Shown here in pieces: positions 27,727-46,148 of a stretch of 54,417 bases of DNA. Position 1 is the stretch's first letter, and every line of letters starts with the position of its first letter. Location: positions 1-54,417 of the forward strand of contig DATMVO010000425.1 in assembly GCA_035563115.1 (NCBI GenBank), read 5' to 3'. The position numbers were made by a program, and so were the translations under genes. Source of the stretch: Solirubrobacteraceae bacterium (lineage in GTDB: Bacteria > Actinomycetota > Thermoleophilia > Solirubrobacterales > Solirubrobacteraceae). The notes under the pieces are model-generated. The model was not told the origin of the DNA. It saw only the letters and a program-made list of their open reading frames with translations, and made no database searches.

Positions 27727-27728
27727 CG

Positions 27729-29101: not shown

Positions 29102-29805
29102 GCGTCGTGTCCGCGCTCGCACTTCCCGCCGATGGGAACGATCCGCTCGCCCTGCTCGGCCGCGCATTCGACGCGCAGCGACACGGCGCTCCGCCGCACG
29201 TCGAGCACGTGCTCCGCTGGCACGACGGCTCGGAGGCGACGGTGAAGGTCGCACGGTGGATCGCCGACCCCACCCCGGAGGAGCTCGCGCTTCTGGACCG
29301 GGTTCGCGGGCCGGTGCTCGACGTCGGGTGCGGCCCCGGCCGGCACGTCTCCGAACTGCAGCGCCGTGGGATCCCCGCACTCGGCGTCGACGTCCTGCCC
29401 GAGGCCGTGCGGTTCGCGCGCGCCCGCGGGGCCCGAGCGTTGCAGCGCTCGGTGTTCGCCCCGCTTCCGGACACCGGCCGGTGGCGGACCGCACTCCTGC
29501 TCGACGGCAACGTCGGCATCGGCGGCGACCCCGCCGCGCTCCTGCGCCGCATCCACGCGTTGCTCGGCGCCGGCGGCATCGTGCTGCTGGAGGCCGAGGA
29601 GCACGGCATCGGGCTGCGCTGCGGCACCTGCCGGCTCGAGACGCCGGCCGGCAGCAGCACGCCCTTCCGCTGGGGCCGGGTCGGCATCGACGCGGTGGAC
29701 ACCCTCGCCGCCGCCTGCGGCTTCACCGTCAGCGACGCGTGGACGGTCGGCGGCCGTTGGTTCGCCCAGCTCACCGCCGACCACCGCCCGACCGTCGTCC
29801 GCTAG
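29098..29805 (+). CDS. Class I SAM-dependent methyltransferase
   Basis: Motif I is VLDVGCGPGRHVSEL, then GVDVLPEAV and ALLLDGNVGIGGDP. The start is TTG 29098 (overlapping the AraC stop) or GTG 29107. Confidence 0.65.
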   Translation: MSVVSALALPADGNDPLALLGRAFDAQRHGAPPHVEHVLRWHDGSEATVKVARWIADPTPEELALLDRVRGPVLDVGCGPGRHVSELQRRGIPALGVDVLPEAVRFARARGARALQRSVFAPLPDTGRWRTALLLDGNVGIGGDPAALLRRIHALLGAGGIVLLEAEEHGIGLRCGTCRLETPAGSSTPFRWGRVGIDAVDTLAAACGFTVSDAWTVGGRWFAQLTADHRPTVVR

Positions 29806-30089
29806 GAGCGCGCGAGGAAGTCCAGCACGGCCCCCGGTTGAAACTCCTCCGGGTGGCTGACGTTGGAGCCGTGCGGGGCGCCCGCGATGACGTGCAGCTC
29901 GCTGCCCGCGAGCGCCTCGTGCGTGCGCTTGCCCGAGCCCTCGAACGGCACCGTCGCGTCACCGTCGCCGTGCACTACGCCGACAGCTTCGGCCACGACC
30001 GGAAGTCCGGCGCGGCGTTCAGCGAGGACGAGTACCGCGTCGAGGTCTGGCAGCCACCCGGCCTGCGTCTCCCAGGTCGTTCTCAGCCG
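29802..30089 (-). pseudogene. C-terminal remnant of an alpha/beta-hydrolase
   Basis: Only the last roughly 95 codons look native (VVHGDGDATVPFEGSGKRTHEALAGSELHVIAGAPHGSNVSHPEEF..AVLDFL). Upstream the ORF becomes Arg/Ser-rich and overlaps the next plus-strand gene. Confidence 0.4.
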
Positions 30090-30198
30090 GCGCCCTGGAC
30101 CTGACGTTCCGCGCCGGGCCGGCGTCCTTCTCCTGGAAGGCGCCGCCTCGTCGGCGCTCTTCGGGTTCTCTTGCCCCGGTCGATCACGGTGAATCTCC

Positions 30199-31428: not shown

Positions 31429-31545
31429 ACGGTCCACGGCGCGCCACCGCTCGGACGGCCTGGGGCCCGGCGGAGAACGACGAACGGGGCGCCGTCGCCG
31501 GCGCCCCGTTCGCTGCTTCGCTGTCGTGTTCGCTGCGCTGCCCGG

Positions 31546-31842
31546 TTACGACCGCGCGGAACGCGCCGCGCGGGCGCGCGCACGGGCACGGGCGCGGGCG
31601 CTCTTCGACCGGGCGGACCGGGTGCTCGCAGCGGTCGCCGTCGCCGTCGACGTCGTCGAGTCCGAGCTCGTCGACTCGCCCGGGTACGTGCCGGCGCTCT
31701 GCGACGTCGTCTCGCCCGGGTACGTGCCGGCGCTGTCGCCGTCCCGGTCCGGGCAGGCCGCGAACGCGGCGGTGCCGCCCGACATCGCGAGCGCCCCGGC
31801 GGCGAGGCCGGCGACGAGCGAGCGGTTCTTGATGGTGAGCAT
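31546..31842 (-). CDS. Small secreted repeat protein
   Basis: The signal-like N-terminus is MLTIKNRSLVAGLAAGALAMSGGTAAFAA. It has a duplicated SAGTYPGE(T/S)TS unit encoded by a perfect 24-nt direct repeat (31675-31698 and 31711-31734) and an (AR)n tail. Confidence 0.4.
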   Translation of the reverse strand: MLTIKNRSLVAGLAAGALAMSGGTAAFAACPDRDGDSAGTYPGETTSQSAGTYPGESTSSDSTTSTATATAASTRSARSKSARARARARARAARSARS

Positions 31843-32128
31843 GGGTCCTCCTGGAGGGTGGTTTCCCTCACAAGGACGCTTTGGCCAGGCGCGACGTCAG
31901 GTGGTTCATGCACACCTCTTCGCTCAGGAGCTCACACGTTCCTCTCGGGTCGTGCTCACCGGTCACATCGACCATGGGCTGCATGAACCCGGTCGAGCAT
32001 CACCTCGCCGTCGACGACGCGATGGGACACCGCAACTCGCCGGGGAGCCACATCGCCGCTCAGGCGCGTCCGGATGTCGTCGCCTTCCACGACGCCGTTC
32101 TCGCCTGCGTCGCCGACCTTCGAACGCA

Positions 32129-32716
32129 GTGACAGCCTTCCCGCCCCACCATGTCGTCCGCGACGAGGTCCTCGCGCGGCGGGCGGCGGCGGGCGACGAG
32201 GACGCTTTCGCGGTCCTGGTCTCACGCCACCACCCGCGCATCGAGCGGTATTGCCGGTCCATCGTCCGTCATGACGAAGACGGCAGCGACGCGGCGCAGA
32301 ACGCGATGGCGAAGGCGATGCTCGCCCTTCGGAACGGCGCGGGTCCGGACCAGGCCGTACGGGCCTGGCTGTACCGCATCGCGCACAACGAAGCGATTTC
32401 CCTGCTGCGCCGGCGCCGCGACGAGCCGGAGCTGAGCGATCGGATGCCGACTCAAGGCGACTCCTTGACGGACACGGTGGAGCTTCGCGACGACGTGGCG
32501 CGGCTCATGGACGCCGTCCGGCACCTACCGCCGGGCATGCGCAGCGCATTCCTGCTCCGTGAGCTCACCGGGCTGGATCACAGGACGATCGGCCAGGTCC
32601 TCGGGATCAGCCAGGGCGCATCCCGTCAGGCCGTCTGCGAAGCGCGTCAGTCGCTGCGTCGAGCGACGTCCGCCCACGTCATGCACTGGCGACGGCCACC
32701 GGCGCTCCGCTCATGA
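32129..32716 (+). CDS. ECF sigma-70 factor
   Basis: Region 2 is DEDAFAVLVSRHHPRIERYCRSIVRHDEDGSDAAQNAMAKA...WLYRIAHNEAISLLRRR. Region 4 is LPPGMRSAFLLRELTGLDHRTIGQVLGISQGASRQAVCEAR. The start (GTG 32129) is tentative. Confidence 0.7.
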   Translation: MTAFPPHHVVRDEVLARRAAAGDEDAFAVLVSRHHPRIERYCRSIVRHDEDGSDAAQNAMAKAMLALRNGAGPDQAVRAWLYRIAHNEAISLLRRRRDEPELSDRMPTQGDSLTDTVELRDDVARLMDAVRHLPPGMRSAFLLRELTGLDHRTIGQVLGISQGASRQAVCEARQSLRRATSAHVMHWRRPPALRS

Positions 32717-32978
32717 GCTCGCTCGAACCGCGCTTGTCACGCCGCCGCTGGAGCCCCTCGATGCCTGTCGTCACGCGCCGTCGACGAACGAACGAGCGAG
32801 CGCCGCGATCATCGCCACCCCTACTCTGACCATCAGGAGCGAGGTGAGCGGGCCTGCTGCGCCGTTCAGTTTCCGTCGAGCGCTTGGACGCCACGACGCG
32901 CCTTATGTAGCGGGCGGGTGTTCGGCGCGGGGCATTCCCGCCGATGACTGACTTGAAGTCATCGTCTGTCCCGCCATC

Positions 32979-34337
32979 GTGCTCCTACGCTCCAAGCTCT
33001 TTGTCGCGGTCCTGACCGCTACGTGCCTCTTCGCTGCGATGGCGGGTCTGGCTCTGCTCTGTGGACGTCTCCTCGGCAGCGGTGTCCGCGACGAGGCACT
33101 TGCGAGCGCATCGCGCACCGCGGACGCAGTCGCAACCGTCGCGCTCGCTGACAGCCAGCAGAACGATGAGGCGGACCCCACCGCTGTGCTGCAAGGCTAT
33201 GTCCGACGGGTCGATACGCTCGAGGCGTTGATCCTGCGCGCGGGCGACGGCACACCTCTGGCGAGCGCCGGCTCGGCCGCCGCAAGGCGCATCCCGGACG
33301 CGTCGCGTTCGCCGAGGATCGCCGGCAACCACCTGGTCGTCGACGTTCCGCTCAACGGACAGATCCCCGAAGCATCGACCCTCACCGTCGTCCTCGCCTA
33401 TAGCCCGGTCAAGGCGTCGATCGACCGGAGCACCGGACAGATCGACCTTGCCCTCGCCCTCGCCGCGCTCGCCATCACACTCGCGGTCCTCCCACTCGTG
33501 CTGCGCGCGATGAACACCGTCGCCTCGCAGGAGCGCCGCCGCGACGCGGACGTCGAGCGCAGCATGCGAACAGCGCTGAACGAGAATCGGTTCGAACTCC
33601 ACTACCAGCCCATCTTCCGGACGTCAGACGGCGTCCTGCGGGGCGTCGAAGCGCTCGTTCGCCTGCGCACACCGGACGGCACGCTCGTGCCGCCAGGCGC
33701 GTTCATCCCGGACGCCGAGCGCACCGGGTTCATCCGCGAGCTCGGTGCCTGGGTCCTCGACGCCGCGTGCCGACAGGCCGCCTGTTGGCGAGCCGACGGT
33801 CATTGGATCGCGACCTCCGTCAACGTCTCACCCGAGCAGATCCGCACGACGGACATGCCCGCCCTCGTGCGCGAGACGCTCGCCCGTCACCAACTTCCCG
33901 CCGAACTGCTGTGGCTCGAGCTGACCGAAAGCGCGCTGCACACCGACATCGGCCGCGCCCGCGACACCCTCTCAGCCTTGGCGGAACTTGGCGTAGCGTG
34001 CACCCTCGACGACTTCGGAGCCGACTGGTCCTCACTCGCACGCCTGCGCGACCTCCCGCTCCGCGGCATGAAGATCGACCGTGCGTTCTTCACTGGCGTC
34101 CCCAATGACGATCGTGCGACGCGCCTGCTCGACGCCATCGTCGCCCTCGGTACGGCGCTCGAGCTGCACATCGTCGCCGAAGGCATCGAGACGGCCGACC
34201 AGCTCGCCTACCTGAACCGCACCCCCTGCGGTTACGCGCAGGGCTTCCATCTCGGTCGCCCGACACCCGCGTCGGAAGTACCGCTCGGCCTGGCGGAGAC
34301 GGAGCAACTCTCCCCGGCCCGCGCGATGATCGCGTAG
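32979..34337 (+). CDS. Membrane-anchored EAL-domain protein (c-di-GMP phosphodiesterase type)
   Basis: An N-terminal TM and a second TM flank a periplasmic-type segment. The EAL core is FELHYQPIF...GVEALVRL...FIPDAERTG...SVNVS...LELTES...DDFGADWSSLARLRDLPLRGMKIDRAF...AEGIET. Confidence 0.8.
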   Translation: MLLRSKLFVAVLTATCLFAAMAGLALLCGRLLGSGVRDEALASASRTADAVATVALADSQQNDEADPTAVLQGYVRRVDTLEALILRAGDGTPLASAGSAAARRIPDASRSPRIAGNHLVVDVPLNGQIPEASTLTVVLAYSPVKASIDRSTGQIDLALALAALAITLAVLPLVLRAMNTVASQERRRDADVERSMRTALNENRFELHYQPIFRTSDGVLRGVEALVRLRTPDGTLVPPGAFIPDAERTGFIRELGAWVLDAACRQAACWRADGHWIATSVNVSPEQIRTTDMPALVRETLARHQLPAELLWLELTESALHTDIGRARDTLSALAELGVACTLDDFGADWSSLARLRDLPLRGMKIDRAFFTGVPNDDRATRLLDAIVALGTALELHIVAEGIETADQLAYLNRTPCGYAQGFHLGRPTPASEVPLGLAETEQLSPARAMIA

Positions 34338-34474
34338 CGTCGTCCGTGTCGCCGATGCCGCGTCGTTGACGAGAGGCCGACCAGCCGAACCGCGCGAACG
34401 GCCCGCGCGGCGGGCTTCATCCGAACCACCGCGAACGTCCCCGAAGAGCTTGAGACCGACGCTGGGCGAGCCGG

Positions 34475-35149
34475 TCAGCCCGGCTGACCCTCGGGGAGGT
34501 AACGGATCATCGCCAGCTCGGTCGTGGCCTCCGGCGCGGGATCCTCCACCGAGCGGCGGTCGGCCACGCGGGCCTGGATCTGGAGCGCCTCGGCGAGCGT
34601 GTCGTTGAGCAGCGTGCTGAGCGCGGCGATGCCGCGCTCGTCGAGCTCGAGCCGCTCGAGCCGGTACCGCGCGCCTTCGGCGTCGAAGCCGCCGTTGAGC
34701 GCCGCCTTGCTGGCGTGCTGCCAGATCATCTCCAGCGTCTGGCCGTACAGCGCCTGACGCGCCGTGGCGGGGAGCTGACCCCACTGCTTGTTGGACAGCA
34801 CCGCCCGCGTCGTAGCGCGGTAGTAGTGCTTGACCGCGCCGCGCCGCTGCTCGGTGCGGACGAGCTCGATCGCGCCGTAGTCGCGCAACATCCGGAAGTG
34901 ATAACCCACGTCTCCGAGCTTCTCGTTGAGCTCTTCCGCGACCTCGCGCGGGCTTGCGACCCGCCGGTTCAGGATCTCCAGGATCCGCTGCCGCAGCGGA
35001 TGGGCGAGCGCCTTGACGTACCGGTCGTCGATCTCCGGCGGGGCGCTCTCGGCTTTACGCGGGGGCACGAGGGAGACACTAGTGCCTTGCGGTGAGCGGA
35101 TCGCGGCCAACTCTGTGTAGGTGAACCTTCCCGCTTTCAGCGGGCGCAC
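34475..35149 (-). CDS. ArsR-family winged-helix regulator with C-terminal extension
   Basis: KALAHPLRQRILEILNRRVASPREVAEELNEKLGDVGYHFRMLRDYGAIELVRTEQRRGAVKHYY is an HTH_20/ArsR pattern. Confidence 0.65.
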   Translation of the reverse strand: MRPLKAGRFTYTELAAIRSPQGTSVSLVPPRKAESAPPEIDDRYVKALAHPLRQRILEILNRRVASPREVAEELNEKLGDVGYHFRMLRDYGAIELVRTEQRRGAVKHYYRATTRAVLSNKQWGQLPATARQALYGQTLEMIWQHASKAALNGGFDAEGARYRLERLELDERGIAALSTLLNDTLAEALQIQARVADRRSVEDPAPEATTELAMIRYLPEGQPG

Positions 35150-35378
35150 ATGGTCTTGACGGTGTCGTCGATGAGACGTTCCGTTCCAGCGCGGAGGTCA
35201 CGTGAACCGCGATCGAGCGGTCACCCGGGTTCGCCGGGGGCGAGATCTTCGGCGTCGACACGGATGCCACGTCCACCGGTACACGGGCCGACCCCGTCCA
35301 CTTTGGCACGACTGCGTCGTGCGTGGGACGCGGGGATCGGTCCCGCACCGGGCGGGACCCCGAGCCAGGAGGCGTCTC

Positions 35379-35939
35379 ATGGCTGCCGGTTCCGCGTTCC
35401 TCGACGAGGCCGCCCAGTTGTTCGCCGACTTCCACTCCGAGCTGCGCATGAAGGTGCGCCGGCGCGTGCGGACCAGCGACGCGAACATCGACGACGCGTG
35501 CGCGCAGGCGTGGCTGATCTTCGTGAGCCGGCAGCCCGAGAACGTCGAGACCTTCCGCGGCTGGCTGATCGTCGTCGCCACGCGCCTCGCGATCGACCTC
35601 GCGCAGGAGGAAGCGGGCACGATCTACCTCGCCAACGGCCATGCCGCGCGCGGCGCTCGCGCCGTCTCCCTCGACATCGTTCCCGAGCAGCACGTCACGG
35701 ATGCTGCGCGGATGGAGGTCAAGGACGCGCTGGAGCGCGTCGCCGAGCTCTGCCCGCGCGACCGCCACGTCTTCGTCCTGCACGTCCTCGGCTACAAGTA
35801 CCCCGAGATCGCAGACCTGATGGGCCTCACCCCCACGGCAGTCGACCGCTACCTCCGACGCGCTCGGGCTCAGGTCCGAGGCACGAGCGCCAAGCCCAAG
35901 CGCGGGCCGCAGAGGAAGGCCGCAGCGCGCGTCGCGTAG
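35379..35939 (+). CDS. Sigma-70 family (ECF-like) sigma factor
   Basis: The ATG at 35379 is preceded by AGGAGG. Region 2-like sequence is DDACAQAWLIFVSRQPENVETFRGWLIVVATRLAIDL. Region 4 is RDRHVFVLHVLGYKYPEIADLMGLTPTAVDRYLRRAR. Confidence 0.65.
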   Translation: MAAGSAFLDEAAQLFADFHSELRMKVRRRVRTSDANIDDACAQAWLIFVSRQPENVETFRGWLIVVATRLAIDLAQEEAGTIYLANGHAARGARAVSLDIVPEQHVTDAARMEVKDALERVAELCPRDRHVFVLHVLGYKYPEIADLMGLTPTAVDRYLRRARAQVRGTSAKPKRGPQRKAAARVA

Positions 35940-36281
35940 GGCTCACCCGAGCGCGTGCCGCGTTCGCGCTCGGTGCCCGACCGTCGAACGGCCGAGGTAG
36001 TCGCCTAGCGGCGAGGGCGCGGTCGTGCGGGAGCGTGCCGTACGGCGGTCGGGCACGCCTTCGGCGCGCGCCCTGACGGACGACCGCCTGCATGAGGCGG
36101 AGGGCTGTGTCTCCCGATCCTCGGCCGGGTGCTCGCGCCGTCAAGGCGTGCTGTCGCGGCCAACTTCGTCAGATCAGGAGAACGGCAGAAGAGCAGGGCG
36201 GAAAGTCGTCGCGCCATCAGCCCTGACTGCGCTGCGCGCCTGGCCGGTCTCGGTGATCCACAACCCCAACGGAGGGACACC

Positions 36282-36485
36282 ATGATCACCATCTTCTGCG
36301 ACGTCTGCCGACGCCACGTCCCGCTGAGCGAGACCCGCGGGCTCGGCGAGCTCGAGCTCGGCTTCGACGTCCTGACCCAGTGCCTCGACCGGCCGACCTG
36401 CGAGGCCACGGAGGCGGCCTACGTGGCCGCAGAGCGCGCCAAGCCGCGCTCGCTCCCGGTCCTACCGGACGACGTGCCGTTCTAG
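36282..36485 (+). CDS. Small hypothetical protein (67 aa, Cys-containing)
   Basis: The ATG at 36282 is preceded by GGAGGG. MITIFCDVCRRHVPLSE...TQCLDRPTCE may bind metal. I recognised no family. Confidence 0.35.
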   Translation: MITIFCDVCRRHVPLSETRGLGELELGFDVLTQCLDRPTCEATEAAYVAAERAKPRSLPVLPDDVPF

Positions 36486-36494
36486 CCGGCAAGG

Positions 36495-36520
36495 CGGCTA
36501 GCTCCCTTGCGAGCTAGCCG
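36495..36520. terminator. Perfect 10-bp stem / 6-nt loop hairpin between convergent genes
   Basis: CGGCTAGCTC-ccttgc-GAGCTAGCCG. It lies between the stop of 36282..36485 (+) and overlaps the stop of 36514..36837 (-). There is no U-tract, as is common in high-GC genomes. Confidence 0.4.
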
Positions 36521-36837
36521 GCTATCCCGCGGTGCTGGTCGACCACCTCGCGCAGCGCCTCTAGCCCCTCCGGCGTCGGGCGCACGTACCGCCAGACCAA
36601 CGCGGCGACCAGCTCGCGCTTGTGCACCTTGAGCTCGAACGCCGCGCGGGCGAGCGCGTCGAACTCGCCCGGCGGCAAGCGGACGAAGAGCGCCGGCAGG
36701 TCTCGGGACGACGGACGTGCCGTCGCCCGCCGCTCCTCCGCGCCCGAATGCGGCGGAGCGGCCATCGCCGATGCACCTCCGGCGCCGAGTGCCAGCGGGT
36801 CGTCGACGGCGCTGAGCTTGCGGCGCGGGCCGCTCAC
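36514..36837 (-). CDS. Small ParA partner (candidate ParG/RHH-type centromere-binding protein)
   Basis: The GTG at 36837 overlaps the parA stop (GTGA, 36834-36837). The protein is 107 aa. LFVRLPPGEFDALARAAFELKVHKRELVAALVWRYV is ribbon-helix-helix-like. The assignment rests mainly on position. Confidence 0.45.
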   Translation of the reverse strand: MSGPRRKLSAVDDPLALGAGGASAMAAPPHSGAEERRATARPSSRDLPALFVRLPPGEFDALARAAFELKVHKRELVAALVWRYVRPTPEGLEALREVVDQHRGIAG

Positions 36838-37607
36838 GCGTTCGCTCCGCGCCGCGCCGGCTCGAGCAGCTCATCGGCCAGCCGCCGGTAGGCCACCGCC
36901 CCACGGCTGTCACCTCGCCAGCTCATCAACGGCAACCGCTCAGCAGCCGCGTTCTGGAACGCCGCGGCGAGCGGGATCTGCGCGCGAGCGATCGGGAGGC
37001 GAAGCTCCGGCAGCGAGGCGTTCATCCGCTGGTAGACGAGCCGCCTCGTATCGACCATCGTGCGGACGAGCGCGCGGACGCTGACCTGCGAGTGGCGCGC
37101 GAGCCGATCGACGATCGCCCTGACCTCCGCCGCGCCCTGAAGGGCACCCTCGTCGGTCATGTCGACCGGGACCAGCACCTCGGTCGCTGCGACGATCGCG
37201 TTCACCGTCAGCAACCCCAGGCTCGGCGGGCAATCGATGAGGACGTCGTCCCAGTCGCTGAGCGCACCGAGGAACAGCTCGGCGAGGAACTGCTCACGGT
37301 GATGCTCCCCCGCAAGAGAAAGCTCGAGGCGGGCCAGCTCCCGCCGCCCGGCGACCAGGTCGACGGCCGGCGCGACGTCGCGCACCACCCCGTCCGCCAA
37401 GCTCCCACCCTCGGCCAAGAGCTCGAACGCCGTCGCCGGCGCCGCCGACGGCACCACGCCGAACCGCCTCGTCAGCGCGAACTGCGGATCGAGATCGACC
37501 GCCAGCACCCGCCTCCCCCCCGCGCCCCACGCCACCGCCAGATTCGCCGTGGTCGTCGTCTTGCCGATCCCGCCCTTCTGCGAGCTGACCGCCATCACCC
37601 TCGTCAC
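36834..37607 (-). CDS. parA: ParA/Soj-family partition ATPase
   Basis: The deviant Walker A is MAVSSQKGGIGKTTTTANLA, followed by VLAVDLDPQ and VLIDCPPSLG. I preferred GTG 37607 as the start because a GGAGG lies 5 nt upstream. Confidence 0.85.
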   Translation of the reverse strand: MTRVMAVSSQKGGIGKTTTTANLAVAWGAGGRRVLAVDLDPQFALTRRFGVVPSAAPATAFELLAEGGSLADGVVRDVAPAVDLVAGRRELARLELSLAGEHHREQFLAELFLGALSDWDDVLIDCPPSLGLLTVNAIVAATEVLVPVDMTDEGALQGAAEVRAIVDRLARHSQVSVRALVRTMVDTRRLVYQRMNASLPELRLPIARAQIPLAAAFQNAAAERLPLMSWRGDSRGAVAYRRLADELLEPARRGANA

Positions 37608-38062: not shown

Positions 38063-41000
38063 ATGGTCTCCATCGGCAAGATCGACGGCAGCCCGGCGTC
38101 GGAGCGCTACTACACGCACACCGTCGCCAACGGCCGCGAGGACTACTACGCCGGAAGCGGTGAAGCGCCCGGCGAGTGGTACGGCACCGGCGCCGACCAG
38201 CTCGGCCTCACCAGCACCATCGACGCCGAGGAGTTCAGCTTGCTGTTCCGCGGCGTCGCGCCCTCGGGCGAGCGTCTGCGGCAGGAGCCCGACGCCCGAT
38301 CGGTCATCGGCTTCGACCTCACGTTCGGCGCACCCAAGTCGGTCTCGATCCTCTACGGCATCGGCGACGACGAGATCTCGCGCGCCGCCCGGGAGGCACA
38401 CGACGACGCCGTCAAGCAGGCGCTCGGCTATCTGGAAAGCCACGCGACGCACACCCGTCGCGGGCGCGGCGGAGCCGAGATCGTTCGCGGCGAAGGGCTC
38501 GCCGTCGGGCTGTTCCGCCACCGCACGTCCCGCGCCGGGGACCCGCACCTCCACACCCACGCGGTCATCGCGAACACCACCCGCGCGACCGACCGCTGGT
38601 CGACACTCGACGGTCGCGCGATCTACGCGCACGCCCGCACCGCCGGCTTCCTCTACCAAGCAGCGCTCCGGGACAACCTCACCCGCGAGCTCGGCGTCGA
38701 GTGGGAACCGGTCGAGCGCGGCGTCGCAGACATCCGCGGCATCGACCGCGGCCTGATCGAGCACCTCTCCCGCCGCCGGCAGGAGATCGTCGAGCACGCC
38801 CACGAACACGGCGGCCGGACGGCAAAGGCGTTCCAGGTCGCCGCGCTCGAGACACGACGGCGCAAGGAGTACGACGTCCCCGTCGACCGGCTGCGAGCGA
38901 ACTGGCGCGCGATGGCCGGCGAGCACGGCTTCGGCCGCGACGAGCTCACCGCCGTGCTCCACCGCGCGCCCGAGGAGCGCCGCCACGTCCCCGGTCCCAG
39001 TGAGGCGCACCTCAGCAGCCCCGAGGGCGTGACGCGCGAGACGAGCACCTTCGACCGCCGCACCGTCATGCGCGAGTGGGCCGAGCAGCACACCGCGGGC
39101 GCCCCGGTCGCCCGGATCGAGCAGCTCGCCGACGACTGGCTCCGCACCCCCGCCGCGGTTCGGTTGTCCCCGGGCGCGCATCCGTCGATGGGCCCGCGCT
39201 ACTCAACGCCAGAGATGCTCGCCACCGAACGGGCCCTGGTCGCCAGCGCCGAGCGGCGCCGTGGCGAGGGCACGGGGATAGCCGACAAGTCCGATGTCGA
39301 GCTAGCGATCAAGCGCCGTCCGCAGATAGCCGGCGAGCAGGCCGCGATGGTCGAACAGCTCACGACCTCAGGCGACGGCATTCAGATCGTCCGCGCCGCC
39401 GCGGGCACCGGCAAGACCTACGCACTGGAGGCCGCGCGAGAAGCGTGGGAGGCGAGCGGCCACCGCGTCTACGGGTGTGCGCTCTCGGCCCGCGCGGCGA
39501 TCGAGCTGGAGACGCAGGCCGGGATCGACAGCACGACGATCGCGCGGCTCAAGCTCGACTTCGACGCCGGCCACGCGCTCGTCCCGAACAACGTCCTCGT
39601 CGTCGACGAGGCCGGCATGGTCGGCTCGCGCGACCTCCGCCGCCTCGCGGACGAGGCTGAGGCGGTGGCCGCGAAGCTCGTGCTCGTCGGCGACGACCAC
39701 CAGCTTCCCGAGATCGAGGCCGGCGGCGCGTTCCGCGGGCTCGCCGAGCGGCTCGGCGCGGTCGAGCTACACCAGACCCGCCGCCAGGAGCACGAGTGGG
39801 ATCGCCAGGCGCTCGCCGCGCTGAGGGTCGGCGGCATCGACGAGTGGGCGAGCACGTACCGCGAGCAGAACCGCATCGTCGCCGCGCGCAACGCCGACGA
39901 GGCTCGCGGCCAGCTCGTCGCGGACTGGTGGCAGACGGCGAAGGAGGACCAGCTCGACGCGGTCATGGTCGCCCACCGCCGGAGCGACGTCGCAGACCTC
40001 AACCAGCGCGCGCGCCTGCACATGGACGAGGACGGCCGGCTCGGTGCCGACCGTGTCGGAGCGGCCGGCCGCGAGTTCGCGGTCGGCGACCGCATCCTCG
40101 GCCGCCACAACGACCGCCGCACCGGGATCATCAACGGCTCGCGAGGTGAGGTCGTCGCGGTCGACACCGAGAAGCGGACCGTCACCATCGCGCTCCGAGA
40201 AGGCGCCGAGGTCATGGTCAAGAGCGACTACCTCGACGCCGGCCACCTCGACCACGGCTACGCCGTCACCGCCCACGCCGCCCAGGGAGCCACCGTCGAC
40301 CGCGCGTTCGTCCTCGGCAGCGATGACCTCTACCGAGAGTGGGGCTACACCGCCCTGACCCGCCACCGCGACGAAGCGCGCTTCTACCTCGTCTCGCCCT
40401 CCAGCACCGAGCAGGCCCTCCCAGGCCTCGAGCCTGATCAGGAGGGAGATCCGCTCCTCGACGAGCTGCGCGAGATGCTCGGCACCTCGCACCAGAAGAC
40501 GATGGCGATCGCCACGAAGGGGCCGGCCGTCCCGCGCGCGGTCGGCGGCCAAGAGCTGCTCGACCGCTACCGCGCGATGCGCAGCGAGGAGCGACGCACC
40601 GCCGAACGACTCGCCGCCGCCGAGCAGGCCGCCGCCGAAGCTCGCACGCGCGCCGACGCCAACGCCGCCGAGCGCGCGGAGCTCTCGCGGCTGCAGCGCC
40701 GCCGTGGTGCCGAGCTCGACCGCCAGCGGAGCGCCCAAGAGGCTGCGGCCGAGCACTGGAACGGCGAGGCGCAGATTCTTCGAGACCAAGCGGTCGAGTT
40801 GAGCAGCATCCGCGAGACGTGGGTCCAGGCGCACAGGCAGCATCTGCGCACCGCCCTCGCGCACGAGCAGGCCGGTCGCACGGCGCCTAACGCGGACGAC
40901 GAACGCATCCGGCAGGCGCTCGCCAACCCGCACCCAGACGTCTTCGGCACCCGCCCAGACTCGCTCTCCGACCGTCACGCGTGGGCGGAGCAGGCGGCCT

Positions 41001-41068
41001 CGCGCGCGCACGCGTGCGAGATGCCATCGTTCGCCGAGCCGGACGCCGCCGTCGACATCGACCTGTGA
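38063..41068 (+). CDS. MobF-family conjugative relaxase (TrwC domain) fused to a RecD-like helicase
   Basis: The N-terminus is ERYYTHTVANGREDYYAGSGEAPGEWYGTGADQLGL, with the histidine triad GDPHLHTHAVIAN. The helicase has IVRAAAGTGKTYALEAA and VLVVDEAGMV. The C-terminal portion (GYAVTAHAAQGATVD) is UvrD_C-like. Confidence 0.85.
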   Translation: MVSIGKIDGSPASERYYTHTVANGREDYYAGSGEAPGEWYGTGADQLGLTSTIDAEEFSLLFRGVAPSGERLRQEPDARSVIGFDLTFGAPKSVSILYGIGDDEISRAAREAHDDAVKQALGYLESHATHTRRGRGGAEIVRGEGLAVGLFRHRTSRAGDPHLHTHAVIANTTRATDRWSTLDGRAIYAHARTAGFLYQAALRDNLTRELGVEWEPVERGVADIRGIDRGLIEHLSRRRQEIVEHAHEHGGRTAKAFQVAALETRRRKEYDVPVDRLRANWRAMAGEHGFGRDELTAVLHRAPEERRHVPGPSEAHLSSPEGVTRETSTFDRRTVMREWAEQHTAGAPVARIEQLADDWLRTPAAVRLSPGAHPSMGPRYSTPEMLATERALVASAERRRGEGTGIADKSDVELAIKRRPQIAGEQAAMVEQLTTSGDGIQIVRAAAGTGKTYALEAAREAWEASGHRVYGCALSARAAIELETQAGIDSTTIARLKLDFDAGHALVPNNVLVVDEAGMVGSRDLRRLADEAEAVAAKLVLVGDDHQLPEIEAGGAFRGLAERLGAVELHQTRRQEHEWDRQALAALRVGGIDEWASTYREQNRIVAARNADEARGQLVADWWQTAKEDQLDAVMVAHRRSDVADLNQRARLHMDEDGRLGADRVGAAGREFAVGDRILGRHNDRRTGIINGSRGEVVAVDTEKRTVTIALREGAEVMVKSDYLDAGHLDHGYAVTAHAAQGATVDRAFVLGSDDLYREWGYTALTRHRDEARFYLVSPSSTEQALPGLEPDQEGDPLLDELREMLGTSHQKTMAIATKGPAVPRAVGGQELLDRYRAMRSEERRTAERLAAAEQAAAEARTRADANAAERAELSRLQRRRGAELDRQRSAQEAAAEHWNGEAQILRDQAVELSSIRETWVQAHRQHLRTALAHEQAGRTAPNADDERIRQALANPHPDVFGTRPDSLSDRHAWAEQAASRAHACEMPSFAEPDAAVDIDL

Positions 41069-41176
41069 TCTCGGGGGCGAATTCTTCGCTGCCACGACCT
41101 ATCCGGGTCACGCCGAAGCGAACGACATTGAGCCCCAGAGGGGCGGCTGTTCCCCGTCGAATGACCGGCGTTCTCG

Positions 41177-42631
41177 CTACATGTAGTAGGCGTACGTCGG
41201 CTCGAGGTGCGCGTCTTCGGGCAGGTGCTTGATGATGTTTGCGACCCGCCGTGCGGTGCGGAGCGTTACCGGCTCACGGCCGTCAAAGCGCGTCGAGTTC
41301 CAGTTCATCTTCGAGAGCGCTAAGACTTCGTCAGCGATCTCCCGAATGCCGCGTTCGGCGAACGCGGCCCTCAGCGCGACCGGTCGCGGCACGTACATGC
41401 CCGGGTAGCCCTCGTACCACTCGACGGTGCCGCGCGTGTAGAGCACGGCGCTGTCGCGCGCGGTCTCCAACAGCGTTCCCCTCCACGGCGGGTGATAGCC
41501 GCGGCGGTACAGCCGAACGCCCGAGGAGGTCACCCAGACGAGTTCGCAGAGCGCGATGTCGAGGTCATCGGCTGCCGCGAGCATGCCGGCCCGTTCGTTG
41601 TCGTCGAACGGCGTGACCTTGTGAACGACAACGCGTGCAGGCCTGGTCTTGTGCTCGGCGTAGTACGCCTTGACGGCGTCCTTCAGTGCCGCGTACGCGC
41701 CCTTCTCGCTGAGGTGCAGTTGATGATCTTCGTTGGACTTACGAGCCGGTCCACCTCGCACGATCACGCCGTCACCGCGCTGGTTGAAAACCTGAGCGAT
41801 GCTGCTCGCCGTGTCGTTGCCGTCGCCGATGCGGAAGAAAGCGATTCCCACAAAGCACGCCGTCAGATCGGTTGACTCGCGAACGAGACGCCACGGAGTC
41901 CCACCGGCCTTGTAGTAGAGCGCCGTTAGGAAGTTCCAGGCGATCGTCGCGTCGTCTTGACGCTCATCGGCCTTCTGCCCCTTCATGCTTGGCCGGTTCG
42001 GCGCGCCGCGTGTGTAAGCCCGTGCGCGGACAAGCTGAAGCGGGACTCGAAGCGGCATCGCGCGTGCTTTGAGTAGGTCATGGAACGCCGGCGGGCGTTC
42101 TTCATCCGCAGTCTGGCTGTCGATGACATCCAGCTTGGGCTTCGCTCCGGCGCGACGCGGCGTGGCTTCGTCGAGCTCCTCGGGGATGTGGCAGATGACC
42201 ACGTCGACGTTCGTGTCTTGCACCAGCGTCTCGAGCTCCTCGAGATACAGCTTGACCGCCGCATTTATTCGCTTGGTCGGCGAGATCGTCTTGAGGCGCT
42301 CGATGTCGCGGGACCTGATCGGTCGCTGCGTGCGGTCATCCATGACGATCTCTGCGCAGTAGCTGCTGCTCTGGCGGAAACCGGGGAAGTCGGGCCACAG
42401 GCCGGGCTGGCGCTGCTTCATGCCGGCGATCGGCTCTCGCAACGAGGTCAGCCACTGTTCGAGCGCGTCGATGTGCGCTTGGGTTCCGACGATCCCGACG
42501 TTGATCTGCCGGGGAGCGCCCGGCGCTTCCAGATCCGCCGGCCCGTAGGCGACGACGCCAAAGCGTGGGTCGACGTGACGGCCGCCGCCGGCGAACTCGA
42601 GCTGCGGTTCGGGAAGAACGTCGGCTTTCAT
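41177..42631 (-). CDS. Short prokaryotic Argonaute (MID + PIWI only, predicted catalytically inactive)
   Basis: 484 aa from ATG 42631. PIWI hallmarks are NFLTALYYKAGGTPWRL, LSKMNWNSTRFDGREPVTLRTA and the C-terminal YAYYM. GIAF occupies the position of the GxDV catalytic strand. Confidence 0.8.
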   Translation of the reverse strand: MKADVLPEPQLEFAGGGRHVDPRFGVVAYGPADLEAPGAPRQINVGIVGTQAHIDALEQWLTSLREPIAGMKQRQPGLWPDFPGFRQSSSYCAEIVMDDRTQRPIRSRDIERLKTISPTKRINAAVKLYLEELETLVQDTNVDVVICHIPEELDEATPRRAGAKPKLDVIDSQTADEERPPAFHDLLKARAMPLRVPLQLVRARAYTRGAPNRPSMKGQKADERQDDATIAWNFLTALYYKAGGTPWRLVRESTDLTACFVGIAFFRIGDGNDTASSIAQVFNQRGDGVIVRGGPARKSNEDHQLHLSEKGAYAALKDAVKAYYAEHKTRPARVVVHKVTPFDDNERAGMLAAADDLDIALCELVWVTSSGVRLYRRGYHPPWRGTLLETARDSAVLYTRGTVEWYEGYPGMYVPRPVALRAAFAERGIREIADEVLALSKMNWNSTRFDGREPVTLRTARRVANIIKHLPEDAHLEPTYAYYM

Positions 42632-43071
42632 GCCGCGAGTTCGCCCTGCTCGGGGCCTGGCGTCGAGGTCTTCTTTTCCGGCGCCGGCTCCCAGCGCCGG
42701 TCGTCGATGCCGATCGGCAGCTCGACCTGCGTCGGCGGCGCGAGCGTGAGCGCGACAGCGTCGCTTGCAAGGAGTGAAGGTGGTGGGCTTAGTACGTGTT
42801 GCCACAGCGCGAGATGGCTGATGAGCGACTTGTTTTTCTCCAGCCGCTTGATGCCGCTTACAAGGTCATCGGCGAGGTAGTTGGGGCGCTCTCCGTCGTA
42901 GGTGAAGTGGTACTGCGGCTCGACGACAAGGCACCACGTGCCGTCGATGAACTCGAAGGTCGGCCGGAAGGCTTGGTGGGCGCACGTACCAGATGCCCTC
43001 TGCGTGTCTCTCACCAGGTCGCGGACGATTCGGCTGGACCTTGACGACCAGGCGTGGGCCCGACGGGCCAT
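42628..43071 (-). CDS. APAZ C-terminal part (fragment 2 of a frameshifted DREN-APAZ gene)
   Basis: HQAFRPTFEFIDGTWCLVVEPQYHFTYDGERPNYLADDLVSGIKRLEKNKSLISHLALWQHVL has good codon bias. Its TGA overlaps the pAgo ATG (ATGA, 42628-42631). Confidence 0.6.
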   Translation of the reverse strand: MARRAHAWSSRSSRIVRDLVRDTQRASGTCAHQAFRPTFEFIDGTWCLVVEPQYHFTYDGERPNYLADDLVSGIKRLEKNKSLISHLALWQHVLSPPPSLLASDAVALTLAPPTQVELPIGIDDRRWEPAPEKKTSTPGPEQGELAA

Positions 43072-44023
43072 CGACCTCGAGGTTCTTCAGCGGCTTCGGC
43101 CCGGGAAAATAGAACAGGCGATCGCCCTCGTGCCATCTCAGCATGGGTCGAAGCTGATGTTCCAAGCTGCGGCGCAGCAATTGCACCCAGAGCGCGCGTC
43201 GGTCGGAGTCATCGGAATGCGACCAGTCGCTGGACGGATGCGCCTCGACCGTGCTGGTGTCGGCGAAGCGCCGAACTGAGGTTGTGCGGGGGTCGCGGAG
43301 CGTATAGACGCGTCGGTCATGAAGCACAAAGTCCCAGTCCGGGTCGGGGATCTGGGCGTCGACGTACGTGCTGGCGACATGCGCCCGCTTGGTTGCGTCA
43401 GTCTCGACCGACCACAGCGTGCGGGGGTACTCGGTGATCGGAAACAGATTCGACAACACGTGCTCCGGCGGGGGCGGCGGGAGGTATGGGGCGGCCGGCT
43501 CATGGCTGTTTGCGAGGTTCAACAGCAGCGCCCCGCACGATGCGTCGAACCGGTCCGCTTCCTTGTCGAAGATGACCTTTCGTGCGGCCCGTCGTTCCTT
43601 GTCGGCGAACCAGTCGGTCACGCAACGGAACCAGACCTGATGAACCTGCGGGTCGTTTGGATGCGAGCAGACGAGGATCACCGGCTCGGCACTGCGCATC
43701 CAGTAGTCGATGTCGGCAGCGTTGCACAGGAACTCGAACGAAGTCTCGGTCTCGCGGGTGTATGCCGCGTACCCCTTGCTCTGAACGCGCACTTCTCGAT
43801 GCAGCGGCTCGCCGGTACGAGCGTTGCGTAGTTCGATGCGGCCGTCGATGCCCGTGTCGAACGTCCCACCGGTCGACCGCCAGATGAACTCCATGTCGAG
43901 CACGATCCGCTCGATCAGGTTCTCGCCTTTCTGACCGGTGATCTGACCCTGCGTGACCTTCTTTGTCTGACGCCTGCGCGTACCCATCCCAAAGGACAGC
44001 TTGACCGTCAGGTCGGTCGGCAC
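42866..44023 (-). CDS. DUF4365 (DREN, Mrr-like PD-(D/E)xK nuclease) + APAZ N-terminal part (fragment 1 of the pAgo partner gene)
   Basis: GQKGENLIERIVLDMEFIWRSTGGTFDTGIDGRIEL...EVRVQSKG...AADIDYWMRSAEPVILV is the DUF4365 signature. The last roughly 50 codons before the stop at 42866 turn Arg/Pro-rich (out of frame). Confidence 0.7.
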   Translation of the reverse strand: MPTDLTVKLSFGMGTRRRQTKKVTQGQITGQKGENLIERIVLDMEFIWRSTGGTFDTGIDGRIELRNARTGEPLHREVRVQSKGYAAYTRETETSFEFLCNAADIDYWMRSAEPVILVCSHPNDPQVHQVWFRCVTDWFADKERRAARKVIFDKEADRFDASCGALLLNLANSHEPAAPYLPPPPPEHVLSNLFPITEYPRTLWSVETDATKRAHVASTYVDAQIPDPDWDFVLHDRRVYTLRDPRTTSVRRFADTSTVEAHPSSDWSHSDDSDRRALWVQLLRRSLEHQLRPMLRWHEGDRLFYFPGPKPLKNLEVDGPSGPRLVVKVQPNRPRPGERHAEGIWYVRPPSLPADLRVHRRHVVPCRRAAVPLHLRRRAPQLPRR

Positions 44024-44210
44024 CAGACTGCGCGACCATTTCTAGCCGTGAGCACCGACGCGTTGCTTCACGATCGGCTCGGCCACCGGCGCGTATCGCC
44101 GGCGCCCGAGGGGATGTCGAACTTCTCGCCAAGTCCGTCTTGTCACCAAGTGGGTGAACCCAGCTCAGCCCTGCTGAGGCCTCAACCCCGTTGCTCCCGG
44201 TCGCTGCTTC

Positions 44211-44441
44211 TCAGCCCGCCGGCGGGTACGGGTCGTTGCCGTACGAGTTGCGCTCGCCGATCGTGCCGTCCTGGTTGTGGATGACGTGCTCGGTCTTCGC
44301 GTTCTGTGCGAGTTCCCGGCCGCGCGAGACTGCCTCGACCTTGTTCGAGTGGACGCTCGACGCGCGGTCGCCGCCTTCCACCTCGTTCGCCCAGTTTCGC
44401 GTGTCGCTCCGGTAGACCGTGTGGATCCAGCCGCGTGCCAT
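44211..44441 (-). CDS. DUF2188 family small protein
   Basis: GWIHTVYRSDTRNWANEVEGGDRASSVHSNKVEAVSRGRELAQNAKTEHVIHNQDGTIGERNSYGNDPYPP matches the DUF2188 pattern. Confidence 0.55.
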   Translation of the reverse strand: MARGWIHTVYRSDTRNWANEVEGGDRASSVHSNKVEAVSRGRELAQNAKTEHVIHNQDGTIGERNSYGNDPYPPAG

Positions 44442-44519
44442 GCCGACCTCCTTGCTTCCGACGTTGCCAGGCGACTTCGTACCCGACGAGCCCGTCCCGG
44501 AACGTCCCTGCTTACGAGA

Positions 44520-46148
44520 TCAAGCGGCGGCGTCGGAACGCCGGCGAAGCCTCCGCATCTCCCACCACGGACGCCGCTCGACCACTGCCGGAGCGTGAGC
44601 GCCGGAGACGACCAGCACGCGTGTTCCACCCAACTGCTGTAGGGCGCCGGGCTCAGTTCGAGAGTCCGTGCCGCGGTCCGATCGCGCGCTGTCGACCAGA
44701 CCGTCTACGAAGCGTCGCGTCTCCTCGTCACTGATCGGACCCATCAGCAGCTTCGTCGTCGAGTTGGCGAGGACGGTGTCCCCGGCGCGCCCGAACCGCT
44801 CCTGCAACTGCGCGAGCGACTGCCAGACGGTCGCGATCCGGATGCCGAAGCCAGCCGACTGCGAGAGGATGCTCGGGAGGTCGCGCAGAGGAGCGATGTT
44901 CGCGGCTTCATCCATGAGCACACGGAGGGTCGGGTCGAGAGGCCCGACCCTCGTTGCTCGCTCCCGCGCTCCCTCGATCGCTGAGGACATCAGCGCGACG
45001 ATCAACGGGGTGAGAAGCCGCTGATCGCGGTCGCCCGCGACGACGTAGAGCGTCTGCGGGGTGCCGTCGAAGAACAGCTCGGGCGTGAAGCCGGAGCCAG
45101 CGTGCTCGATGACCTCCGGGAAGCGGTACGCCGCGAGCACCGAGCCAGCCGACATGAACGTCGTGCCGCGGTTCCGTGGGTCGAGCTCGAGCACCGCCTT
45201 GAGCTGCAGCAACGCCGCCTCCGCGCCCGCGGCCTTGAGGATGCGCACCGGCTGGTGCTCCTCCTGCTTGTCCAGCCATCGGAGCACCACGTCGACGCGC
45301 TCGCTCTCCAACGCGGCTGCGTGCAGGAGTGGAGCGAGGAGCTTGGCCGCCTCGCCCCGCCAGTAGCCAGCAATCTCCGAGTCACCCTGCTGCGTGGCGT
45401 CGGCGAGCCACTGCGCCTGCCGGAGCGCCGTCGACCAGTCGTCGCAGTCCTCGAGCGGGTTCCAGTCGCATGAGTCGCCCGCGAAGGGGTCGTAGATCCA
45501 GATCCGGCCGAGGCGCTCACGGTGGGCGCGCGTGACGTCCAGGACGTCCCGCTTCGTGCTGGTGACGATCGCCGGACCGTCGTGCTCGAGCAGCCACGGG
45601 ATGATGTACCGCGTCGTCTTGCCGGCGCGCGTCGGGGCGATGAGCGCGACGTGGGCCTCTGGGTCGGACGTCAGCGTCTGGCCGTCCAGCTTCCCGAGCG
45701 AGAAGCCGGTGCCCGTCTTGGTCAGCTCGCGCATGTCGCGTGGGCGCGCCCACGTGCGCGGACGTGAGCCGCGCCATTCGTACGACCGGCGCCCGAGCCG
45801 CGCGCGGGCGATCTCCGGCTCCACCCGGCGAAAGACGACGATGGCGAGCACGACGAGGACCGCGAACATGCCTCCAGCGATGAGCCACCAGGCCGCCGCT
45901 TCAGGCATCTGCTCCCGTGCGGTGCGCGGGTAGGCGGACGCTGGGTCGCTCCACCGGCTCTCGCTGATGATCCTCAGCGTCCCGATCGCCGCCCGGGCGG
46001 CGGAGCAGTCCAACGTCTGACGTGCGGCGACGGCCACAACCGCGAGGGGGACGAGCCACCCGACGAACCCGAGCGCCAGCGCCACGCCGAGGGCAGGAAG
46101 CGGGCTGAGCTTCTCGCTGTCGGCCTTCGTCTTCGCGCGATCGGTCAT
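44520..46148 (-). CDS. Type IV coupling protein (VirD4/TraG/TraD-like)
   Basis: From ATG 46148 there are two N-terminal TM segments, Walker A IAPTRAGKTTRYIIP, and LMDEAANIAPL (Walker B / TraM-recognition region). The ATG overlaps the upstream stop (ATGA, 46145-46148). Confidence 0.8.
   Translation of the reverse strand: MTDRAKTKADSEKLSPLPALGVALALGFVGWLVPLAVVAVAARQTLDCSAARAAIGTLRIISESRWSDPASAYPRTAREQMPEAAAWWLIAGGMFAVLVVLAIVVFRRVEPEIARARLGRRSYEWRGSRPRTWARPRDMRELTKTGTGFSLGKLDGQTLTSDPEAHVALIAPTRAGKTTRYIIPWLLEHDGPAIVTSTKRDVLDVTRAHRERLGRIWIYDPFAGDSCDWNPLEDCDDWSTALRQAQWLADATQQGDSEIAGYWRGEAAKLLAPLLHAAALESERVDVVLRWLDKQEEHQPVRILKAAGAEAALLQLKAVLELDPRNRGTTFMSAGSVLAAYRFPEVIEHAGSGFTPELFFDGTPQTLYVVAGDRDQRLLTPLIVALMSSAIEGARERATRVGPLDPTLRVLMDEAANIAPLRDLPSILSQSAGFGIRIATVWQSLAQLQERFGRAGDTVLANSTTKLLMGPISDEETRRFVDGLVDSARSDRGTDSRTEPGALQQLGGTRVLVVSGAHAPAVVERRPWWEMRRLRRRSDAAA

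Follow-up and report, generated by a model that had tools for sequence, protein, structure and literature searches.

We followed up a candidate defence locus in a 54,417-nucleotide stretch of DNA from a Solirubrobacteraceae bacterium (NCBI GenBank assembly GCA_035563115.1, contig DATMVO010000425.1, positions 1 to 54,417 of the forward strand), hereafter the window. The locus is made up of three minus-strand open reading frames (ORFs) at 41177-42631, 42628-43071 and 42866-44023, the last two of which overlap in different frames. The first encodes a short prokaryotic Argonaute (pAgo), and the other two are parts of what appears to be a single effector gene, in which a DUF4365 (DREN) nuclease domain is followed by an APAZ domain and the reading frame is broken within APAZ. 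An earlier reading of the window, made from the letters and ORF translations without database searches (the sequence-only reading), had proposed a SPARDA-type operon inserted in the transfer region of a conjugative element. Here, we describe the two genes, the frameshift and the surrounding element, and we weigh what the frameshift means for the operon.

The short pAgo

The pAgo gene (41177..42631, minus strand) is an intact ORF for a MID+PIWI-only protein of 484 aa, as supported by PADLOC, PDB and its homologues. Its translation holds ALYYKAGGTPWRL, VGIAF, LSKMNWNS and a C-terminal YAYYM, and all of the features that the sequence-only reading had quoted, for this protein and for the effector gene, are present where it had placed them. 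It matched the PADLOC pAgo_I profile at 1e-158, covering profile positions 1-455 of 455, and aligned end to end with the Ago chains of SPARDA complexes in PDB (9qbp_B, 2.9e-85; 9qbl_B; 9jsb_A, which is NbaAgo, 2.7e-75; 9om4_B). Residues 2-483 aligned to residues 4-483 of 9qbp_B, and likewise to 9jsb_A, which leaves no N or PAZ domain and marks the protein as a short Ago. The SPARTA and SPARSA Ago chains in PDB matched it far more weakly (1e-42 to 1e-21). We found 2658 homologues, the closest being 67% identical.

Searches of the pAgo against Pfam Piwi (E < 0.01) and against NCBIfam (E < 0.001) returned nothing. The sequence-only reading had named a missing Piwi or DUF4365 match as a reason to abandon it, and for Piwi this point is formally touched; DUF4365, in contrast, was matched at 8.5e-18 and pAgo_I as given above. 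We rejected the missing Pfam Piwi and NCBIfam matches as an argument against Ago identity and judged them not meaningful, the dedicated pAgo hidden Markov models (HMMs), the PDB chains and the 2658 homologues being decisive.

The 5'-end pocket of the MID domain, H184/K188/Q199/K241, is invariant in an alignment of 16 family members. In a HMMER alignment, H184, K188 and K241 correspond to R183, K187 and K240 of Nba, which touch the 5'-phosphate of the guide (PMC12205087). From these alignments, the pocket of this pAgo clade is classified as HK-type, versus the RK-type of Nba. The motif H184-K188-Q199-K241 is encoded at about 41909-42082, and its first position is R in 9jsb_A, 9qbp_B and 9qbl_B. 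A separate observation concerns the A1 pocket, where W159, N181 and W201 of Nba correspond to T157, A182 and R202 in this pAgo; the 5'-nucleotide preference may therefore differ from that of Nba.

For the catalytic tetrad of PIWI, we fetched the Thermus thermophilus Ago (TtAgo) sequence from pTT27 and confirmed D478/E512/D546/D660 in it. Aligning the family profile to TtAgo with hhalign placed V339 at D546 and R461 at D660. A264 stands at D478 by motif inspection only (VGFDA vs VGIAF), and E512 was left unaligned. A pairwise local alignment to TtAgo near D478 (AVGFDAGG to ALYYKAGG) was spurious and was dropped, and we make claims only for the positions backed by hhalign. With two or more of the four catalytic residues replaced, PIWI is predicted not to be a nuclease. 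This agrees with the sequence-only reading, which had called the protein probably inactive from GIAF alone; V339 and R461 now carry that prediction, and the motif makes the placement of GIAF at the GxD position plausible, although no trusted alignment reproduced it.

The DREN-APAZ effector and operon layout

The 5' segment of the effector gene (42980..43987, minus strand) encodes residues 1-336 in the original frame, counted from an ATG at 43987 (with a GTG at 44023 as the alternative start), and comprises the DREN domain, a linker and the N-terminal two-thirds of APAZ. Within it, the PD-(D/E)XK nuclease domain DUF4365/DREN (Pfam PF14280) lies at 43535..43933 (-), residues 31-163 of the GTG-start ORF, and was matched at the N-terminus of ORF 42866-44023 (-) at 8.5e-18, above the cut-off. 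The 3' segment (42628..42977, minus strand) encodes the C-terminal end of APAZ (~116 aa), which has moved to the +1 frame, as located with PADLOC and tblastn. The ORF that holds it, 42628-43071 (-), contains HQAFRPTFEFIDGTWCLVVEPQYHFTYDG and, like ORF 41177-42631, matched nothing in Pfam at E < 0.01. The two effector ORFs are consecutive stretches of the single PADLOC profile Aga_REase-PNTD1-PNTD2, at positions 2-286 (3.6e-78) and 295-422 (8.7e-32), in line with the frameshift that the sequence-only reading had implied. After a one-base repair, the effector matched PDB chains 9qbp_A (2.5e-50), 9qbq_A and 9jsb_D (“DREN-APAZ,” 1.7e-41), with the DREN domains aligned. The proposed DUF4365 N-terminus followed by APAZ is thus borne out by Pfam, by the PADLOC nuclease-APAZ profile and by the SPARDA chains.

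Catalytic residues D48, Q69 and K71 of DREN (numbered from ATG 43987) map in the HMMER alignment to D41, Q60 and K62 of NbaDREN, which are needed for Nba activity (PMC12205087), and D44 aligns with an acidic residue that we infer to be Xau E37 (bioRxiv 10.1101/2025.04.08.647717). As judged from these alignments, the DREN catalytic residues and the MID pocket are intact and the PIWI tetrad is broken.

The effector gene precedes the pAgo gene, as in SPARDA, and the ATG of the pAgo overlaps the effector TGA (ATGA, 42628-42631), as had been pointed out earlier. An identical 4-nt stop/start overlap occurs in two relatives (L090 and L091) and in plasmid pOT1-7, which is described below; intact relatives of the effector are 436-441 aa long, also with a 4-nt overlap. 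The nearest relative of the effector in the databases is 49% identical. The best matches of the pair in PDB and PADLOC were SPARDA and REase-APAZ entries, more than 40 orders of magnitude ahead of SPARTA and SPARSA. By homology and gene order, the pair is assigned as a SPARDA-type operon of a DREN[DUF4365]-APAZ effector and a MID-PIWI short pAgo.

Its likeness to the characterised SPARDAs (NbaSPARDA, XauSPARDA and EaeSPARDA) covers gene order, full-length homology of both proteins, the DREN D/Q/K residues, a PIWI predicted to be dead, the MID pocket and a C-terminal YxxYM. In the HMMER alignments, the window proteins are no more than moderately identical to the solved SPARDA chains, and the window copy differs in its HK-type MID (RK-type in Nba), its high-GC Thermoleophilia host and its frameshifted effector. 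SPARTA (TIR-APAZ, S2A) and SPARSA (SIR2-APAZ) share the short pAgo/APAZ chassis and a guide- and copy-number-dependent abortive logic (PMC9097488). Unlike theirs, the effector here is a predicted PD-(D/E)XK nuclease and not an NADase, and PDB similarity is 1e-42 to 1e-21 for SPARTA and SPARSA versus 1e-85 for SPARDA.

A frameshift in the effector gene

The frame is broken at 42978..42980 (-), where the window has CCC and homologues imply CC; the one extra C splits YVR|HQAFRP over two frames. More than 40 homologues read ...(K/R)Y(V/I)RH(H/Q)AFRP... at this junction, and in the window frame A gives ...GIWYVR|PPSL there and frame B gives ...CA|HQAFRP. In nucleotides, the site is CGC-CCA-CCA, and taking away one C gives CGC-CAC-CAA-GCC, which encodes R-H-Q-A. 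When we performed tblastn with intact homologues, frame A was matched up to ...GPRLVVKV and frame B from HQAFRP on. With homologue P0122, for example, the 5' frame was followed to ...VVKV, and residues 323-436 matched the 3' segment at 52% identity. The lesion identified by these comparisons is one inserted C within the CCC at 42978-42980.

The predicted product has 336 authentic residues followed by 40 out-of-frame codons, ending at a premature stop at 42866..42868 (-), 235 nt before the pAgo ATG. Among the ~116 lost residues are a portion of the APAZ fold and the APAZ C-terminal tail, which has been predicted to lie in the nucleic-acid cleft beside the MID pocket (bioRxiv 10.1101/2023.06.08.544223). 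Because ribosomes would terminate 235 nt short of the pAgo ATG, translational coupling to the pAgo would be lost as well, and the 3' segment would go untranslated unless initiated at a fortuitous ATG at 43071. Where a SPARDA effector is one uninterrupted DREN-APAZ ORF of ~430-460 aa, the window has a complete APAZ that is divided over two frames; the operon is therefore best described as a SPARDA member by descent and a probable pseudogene as encoded. The truncated effector has most likely lost its function, and the truncation most likely abolishes complex formation and lowers expression of the pAgo.

The same lesion was found in every assembly on record. The window corresponds to ENA contig ERZ27257337 k141_1887679 (MEGAHIT-style), and two per-run Logan assemblies (SRR7497550 and SRR7497549) are 100% identical to it over 4.4 kb spanning the lesion. 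In JGI/IMG and NCBI the effector is recorded as one and the same 385-aa truncated product, in M-start and V-start versions, so that the lesion is documented at the DNA level in ENA/NCBI and the two Logan assemblies and at the protein level in JGI/IMG. We found no intact allele of the effector among 5.8 billion protein clusters, in which the next match is 49% identical. At columns conserved at ≥90%, the effector keeps 95/123 residues before the shift and 37/48 after it (77% vs 77%); because conserved residues are kept equally on both sides, the lesion appears to be young.

We consider it likely that the operon is a very recently inactivated pseudogene. The sequence-only reading had treated the frameshift as something to repair, and its reproducibility in all assemblies on record makes a real inactivation the most likely explanation instead. 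Several points weigh against this interpretation. The lesion stands alone in two otherwise pristine genes, which would also fit an error or a consensus that took up a minority allele, and one or two shared libraries may underlie all of the assemblies. Even the truncated gene would still yield the DREN domain and about two-thirds of APAZ, and ATG 43071 opens the downstream frame, making a split APAZ conceivable. In addition, S2B is the clade assigned to DUF4365 effectors (bioRxiv 10.1101/2023.06.08.544223), and we place the operon in it by best database matches rather than by a tree.

Two alternatives take up these points. The extra C could be a rare variant or have arisen in sequencing or assembly, leaving the operon functional and an active SPARDA to shield host and element from competing multicopy plasmids and phages. 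A single lesion in a short C-run, in DNA of 65-70% GC, is what such an artefact might look like; there are no further stops or indels, conservation is equal on either side of the shift, and the pAgo is intact with all family-invariant residues in place. We nevertheless regard this as unlikely, given the DNA identity between the ENA contig and both of the independent per-run Logan assemblies, the 385-aa product in JGI/IMG and NCBI, and the lack of an intact allele among the 5.8 billion protein clusters. A 3-nt homopolymer, moreover, is not a typical Illumina error site. The frameshift might otherwise be real and yet bypassed or tolerated, either by programmed +1 ribosomal frameshifting or by a split effector, with the products of the 385-aa and 147-aa ORFs coming together again with the pAgo. 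In keeping with this, the downstream frame has its own ATG (43071) after a GAGG, ends in the ATGA coupling to the pAgo and is undecayed after the shift. However, the GAGG is merely 3 nt from ATG 43071, 0 of ~40 intact homologues are divided, no record annotates the 147-aa ORF as a gene, and the break interrupts the conserved YVRHxAFRP motif midway. CGC-CCA-CCA is not known as a +1 slippery or hungry-codon site, and slippage during transcription would call for a longer C-run; on this sequence context, we rejected both programmed frameshifting and transcriptional slippage. A bypassed or split effector is thus highly improbable, and recent inactivation remains our preferred interpretation.

Disrupted genes were also seen in relatives. 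The second-closest relative of the pAgo (P0003, 66% identical) has an intact pAgo, and its DREN-APAZ gene carries a 1-nt frameshift, independent of that in the window, at ...DIDYWMRSD|..PVLLICSHP near residue 100 in the DREN domain; it was recovered from one assembly (L004:8686-10004, GCA_030447205.1 JAUJPH010000001.1) and from an independent Logan contig (L005:1336-2654, SRR24765285), and its locus has no obvious conjugative context. On Mesorhizobium huakuii plasmid p_1 (NZ_CP050299.1; L096:8001-9469), the short pAgo was matched in two tblastn pieces and the annotated coding sequence is 423 aa, which suggests a disrupted pAgo beside an intact DUF4365 gene.

The conjugative backbone

The pAgo gene is convergent, across a gap of 108 nt, with the gene for a MobF (TrwC-type) relaxase-helicase at 38063..41068 (+), which matched Pfam TrwC (1.9e-84) and AAA_30 (2.3e-52) and, above the cut-off, NCBIfam MobF (2.3e-80). 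A ParA gene lies beyond the relaxase. On the other side, the minus strand carries a VirB4/TcpF-like ATPase, a large membrane protein, an SLT lytic transglycosylase, the type IV coupling protein (T4CP), a DUF2188 protein and then the SPARDA pair. The ATPase matched NCBIfam TcpF/VirB4-like at 8e-47, below the curated cut-off, with AAA_10, and the element also gave a weak TcpC-like match. The T4CP, VirD4/TraG-like and part of the backbone, is encoded at 44520..46148 (-) (Pfam T4SS-DNA_transf, 4.1e-27, and TraG-D_C; also NCBIfam), and the 76-aa DUF2188 protein at 44211..44441 (-), between the T4CP and the SPARDA pair (Pfam DUF2188, 1.4e-19). Relaxase, T4CP, VirB4-family ATPase and cell-wall hydrolase together identify a predicted conjugative element with a MOBF relaxase and a FATA-like type IV secretion system (T4SS). 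The sequence-only reading had these neighbours and their strands right, with the relaxase convergent and the DUF2188, T4CP and T4SS genes on the strand of the pair; it had placed the pair upstream of them, but the pair is transcriptionally downstream of T4SS-T4CP-DUF2188.

Between DUF2188 and the effector ATG there is a 223-nt spacer (43988..44210, minus strand) with a GC-rich hairpin, GGGCGCCGGCG-AUA-CGCGCCGGUGGCC (RNA fold z-score -2.4), a possible terminator, or else a regulatory region or operator belonging to the operon itself. A promoter/terminator scan, which is ill-suited to this GC content and phylum, found no sigma-70-like promoter. No tRNA genes, no Rfam family and no terminal overlap of the window were found, and no integrase or replication-initiator domain was found among the scanned ORFs.

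A scan of GTDB genomes for relatives of the T4CP gave 78 loci, all in Solirubrobacterales and mostly on Mb-scale contigs, with the closest in a Baekduia sp. (69%). The Mb-scale contigs suggest integrative and conjugative elements (ICEs), and the element of the window could be an ICE or a plasmid. We rejected the one close T4CP locus (L022, 69%) as a comparator; it comes from a frameshift-ridden metagenome-assembled genome, and no relaxase could be detected downstream of it. When 36-50 kb of the window were compared with PLSDB by megablast, the sole match was one of 52 nt in DUF2188, and the element therefore has no near relative among sequenced plasmids.

Composition and variation of the cargo segment

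The SPARDA locus has 64.5% G+C, compared with 70.2 ± 2.1% for the contig and 72-73% for the immediate backbone, and is the lowest-GC 2.85-kb segment of the contig. G+C at third codon positions (GC3) is 0.76-0.81 in the SPARDA genes versus 0.85-0.89 in the backbone genes. The sequence-only reading had the direction of this contrast right, but its hand-counted 53-63% against 78% overstated it.

We compared the window with a metagenomic sister element (L086), the only close one found, whose relaxase, ParA and T4CP are 79%, 83% and 77% identical to those of the window. In blastn, homology to it stops at 40727 and resumes at 44737, which delimits a variable cargo segment at 40728..44736. In the same slot, the sister element has ~7 kb of different DNA that is also of lower GC (0.64-0.68 vs 0.72-0.74 in its backbone). 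The cargo there (L086:11486-17926, JGI Ga0196960_10000065) encodes a 1335-aa SIR2-NACHT (STAND-type) protein and a 656-aa protein without a family match, with no pAgo and no DUF2188 (for DUF2188, no tblastn match in the sister element). A search of 40.5-45 kb of the window for flanking direct or inverted repeats, insertion sequences and a cassette signature found only short repeats at chance level. GC, GC3 and this comparison bear out the earlier suggestion that the pair is compositionally distinct cargo between relaxase and T4CP. The suggestion that this interval might normally be empty does not hold for the sister element; from the two elements, the relaxase-T4CP interval is interpreted as a variable cargo slot with defence-type genes in both, neither empty nor backbone.

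The pair could instead be ancestral and integral to the transfer region, co-transcribed with the T4SS and T4CP genes and serving a conjugation-linked role such as killing cells with competitor plasmids during mating. The pair does lie on the same strand immediately downstream of T4SS-T4CP-DUF2188, its placement in pOT1-7 is analogous, and one relative's locus is less than 10 kb from a TrwC relaxase. Yet the sister element, with backbone proteins 77-83% identical, lacks the pair and has other cargo in the slot, the GC and GC3 of the pair are below those of the backbone, the 223-nt spacer with its strong hairpin separates the pair from DUF2188, and the closest relatives are found in chromosomal defence islands (BREX, CBASS, NERD) outside transfer operons. 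An integral role is therefore very improbable. Going further in the other direction, the relaxase-T4CP junction of this family of actinobacterial MobF elements could be a dedicated, exchangeable slot for defence cargo, and SPARDA effectors could, in addition, be recurrently lost with the pAgo kept, two independent frameshifts being seen among the closest relatives. Such loss might occur because a replicon transferred as single-stranded DNA pays a price for RNA-guided sensing of single-stranded or multicopy DNA, or because the lone pAgo has a nuclease-independent function. A hotspot would rest on n = 2 elements, the numbers for recurrent effector loss are too small for a claim, and we found no description in the literature of the relaxase-T4CP slot of actinobacterial MobF elements as a hotspot; we regard this combined proposal as improbable. 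A variable cargo slot that holds the SPARDA pair is the interpretation that we retain.

The defence-cargo hotspots of conjugative elements (PMC8791490) likewise combine a fixed slot and a conserved backbone with differing defence genes, here SPARDA versus SIR2-NACHT. Hotspot 5 of SXT ICEs is an example of a defence-cargo hotspot.

A complete class-1 DISARM operon was found at 7530-20881 (-), with PADLOC E-values from 0 to 1e-44; its genes, all on the minus strand, are DrmD (17759-20881), DrmMI (13706-17758), DrmA (10081-13653), DrmB (8276-10084) and DrmC (7530-8279). Counting DISARM and SPARDA, there are thus at least two defence systems on the element, and 22210-22647 (-) encodes a NERD-domain protein. 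The region at 23700-37600 is rich in regulators, among them an ECF sigma factor with an RskA-type anti-sigma factor, a SpoIIE phosphatase, a HATPase_c anti-sigma kinase and a Crp-like HTH protein, and it also encodes two further sigma-70 r2/r4 proteins, an EAL-domain protein, TatA and HTH_20. A conjugative element does not usually carry such a set.

Related operons on plasmids and in defence islands

The sequence-only reading had called the conjugative context unusual. We performed tblastn with the pAgo against PLSDB and found matches on 97 plasmids, 91 of them near full-length, and 49 of the 97 plasmids are predicted to be conjugative. We inspected five DUF4365-associated examples, four of which are on plasmids typed as conjugative. 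One plasmid, pOT1-7 of Haematobacter massiliensis (NZ_CP035507.1), has an intact DUF4365-APAZ gene (430 aa) and a pAgo between a virB-type T4SS operon and a convergent T4CP/relaxase block, so that, as in the window, a SPARDA-type operon lies inside the transfer region. In contrast to the window, pOT1-7 is proteobacterial and MOBP/MPF_T, its effector is intact, and its pAgo is just 37% identical to that of the window. Because 49/97 plasmids are predicted conjugative and pOT1-7 has the same topology, SPARDA on a conjugative element is not unusual. Defence systems on conjugative elements are an established theme (PMC8791490).

The closest metagenomic relatives are found in ordinary defence islands with BREX, CBASS, NERD and AAA_21/DUF4276 genes, or beside type III restriction-modification (R-M)/GmrSD genes and a TrwC relaxase. 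In one of these (P0023, 62% identical; L093:1-12125, JGI 3300063428 Ga0599153_0000088), the pAgo locus adjoins a UvrD/PD-(D/E)XK helicase-nuclease, a type III-like R-M system (ResIII and N6_N4_Mtase) and GmrSD_C; a TrwC relaxase lies within 10 kb, and the effector gene is cut by the contig end.

Discussion

The mechanism of intact SPARDA has been described (bioRxiv 10.1101/2023.06.08.544223; bioRxiv 10.1101/2025.04.08.647717; PMC12205087), and by analogy with the characterised Nba, Xau and Eae systems the intact ancestor of this operon most likely worked in the same way. A DREN-APAZ:pAgo heterodimer would load 5'-phosphorylated small RNAs from abundant transcripts, and once the guide had paired with complementary DNA from an invader that is multicopy or highly transcribed, filaments would assemble. 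The filaments would bring DREN domains into tetramers, with indiscriminate DNA cutting and cell death or dormancy as the outcome, an abortive immunity at the population level. The pair is lower-GC cargo between the MobF relaxase and the T4CP/T4SS genes, on an element of a Solirubrobacterales (Baekduia-like) actinobacterium. In this copy, the single C insertion puts the effector out of frame beyond residue 336, removing the end of APAZ and the coupling to the pAgo.

The sequence-only reading had asked how a plasmid- and phage-sensing Ago on a self-transmissible element avoids targeting its own transferred DNA. The conventional answer is activation that depends on copy number and transcription (PMC9097488; bioRxiv 10.1101/2025.04.08.647717). 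SPARTA is triggered by multicopy, highly transcribed DNA, and single- or low-copy replicons do not trigger it even when transcribed (PMC9097488); XauSPARDA becomes about 10^4-fold more toxic only upon addition of pCDF (bioRxiv 10.1101/2025.04.08.647717). By extension, a low-copy conjugative element would be expected to tolerate its own SPARDA, and this may hold for the element studied here. In any case, the question is largely moot for this element, because the frameshift most likely makes this copy non-functional.

Both SPARDA and its location on conjugative elements were already known, intact SPARDA operons are common on conjugative plasmids, and this copy opens no new mechanism; it is a divergent member of the family (67% identity to its nearest relative for the pAgo and 49% for the effector). 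Once repaired, the pair would be a divergent SPARDA with an HK-type MID, possibly of use in guide-preference or diagnostic work, though of modest practical value. For the biology of the family, the window extends SPARDA-type systems to Solirubrobacterales, a poorly studied high-GC lineage, and adds one more case of defence systems riding a conjugative element, with SPARDA travelling together with a complete DISARM operon. The frameshift itself would be a natural example of the decay of an abortive-infection module.

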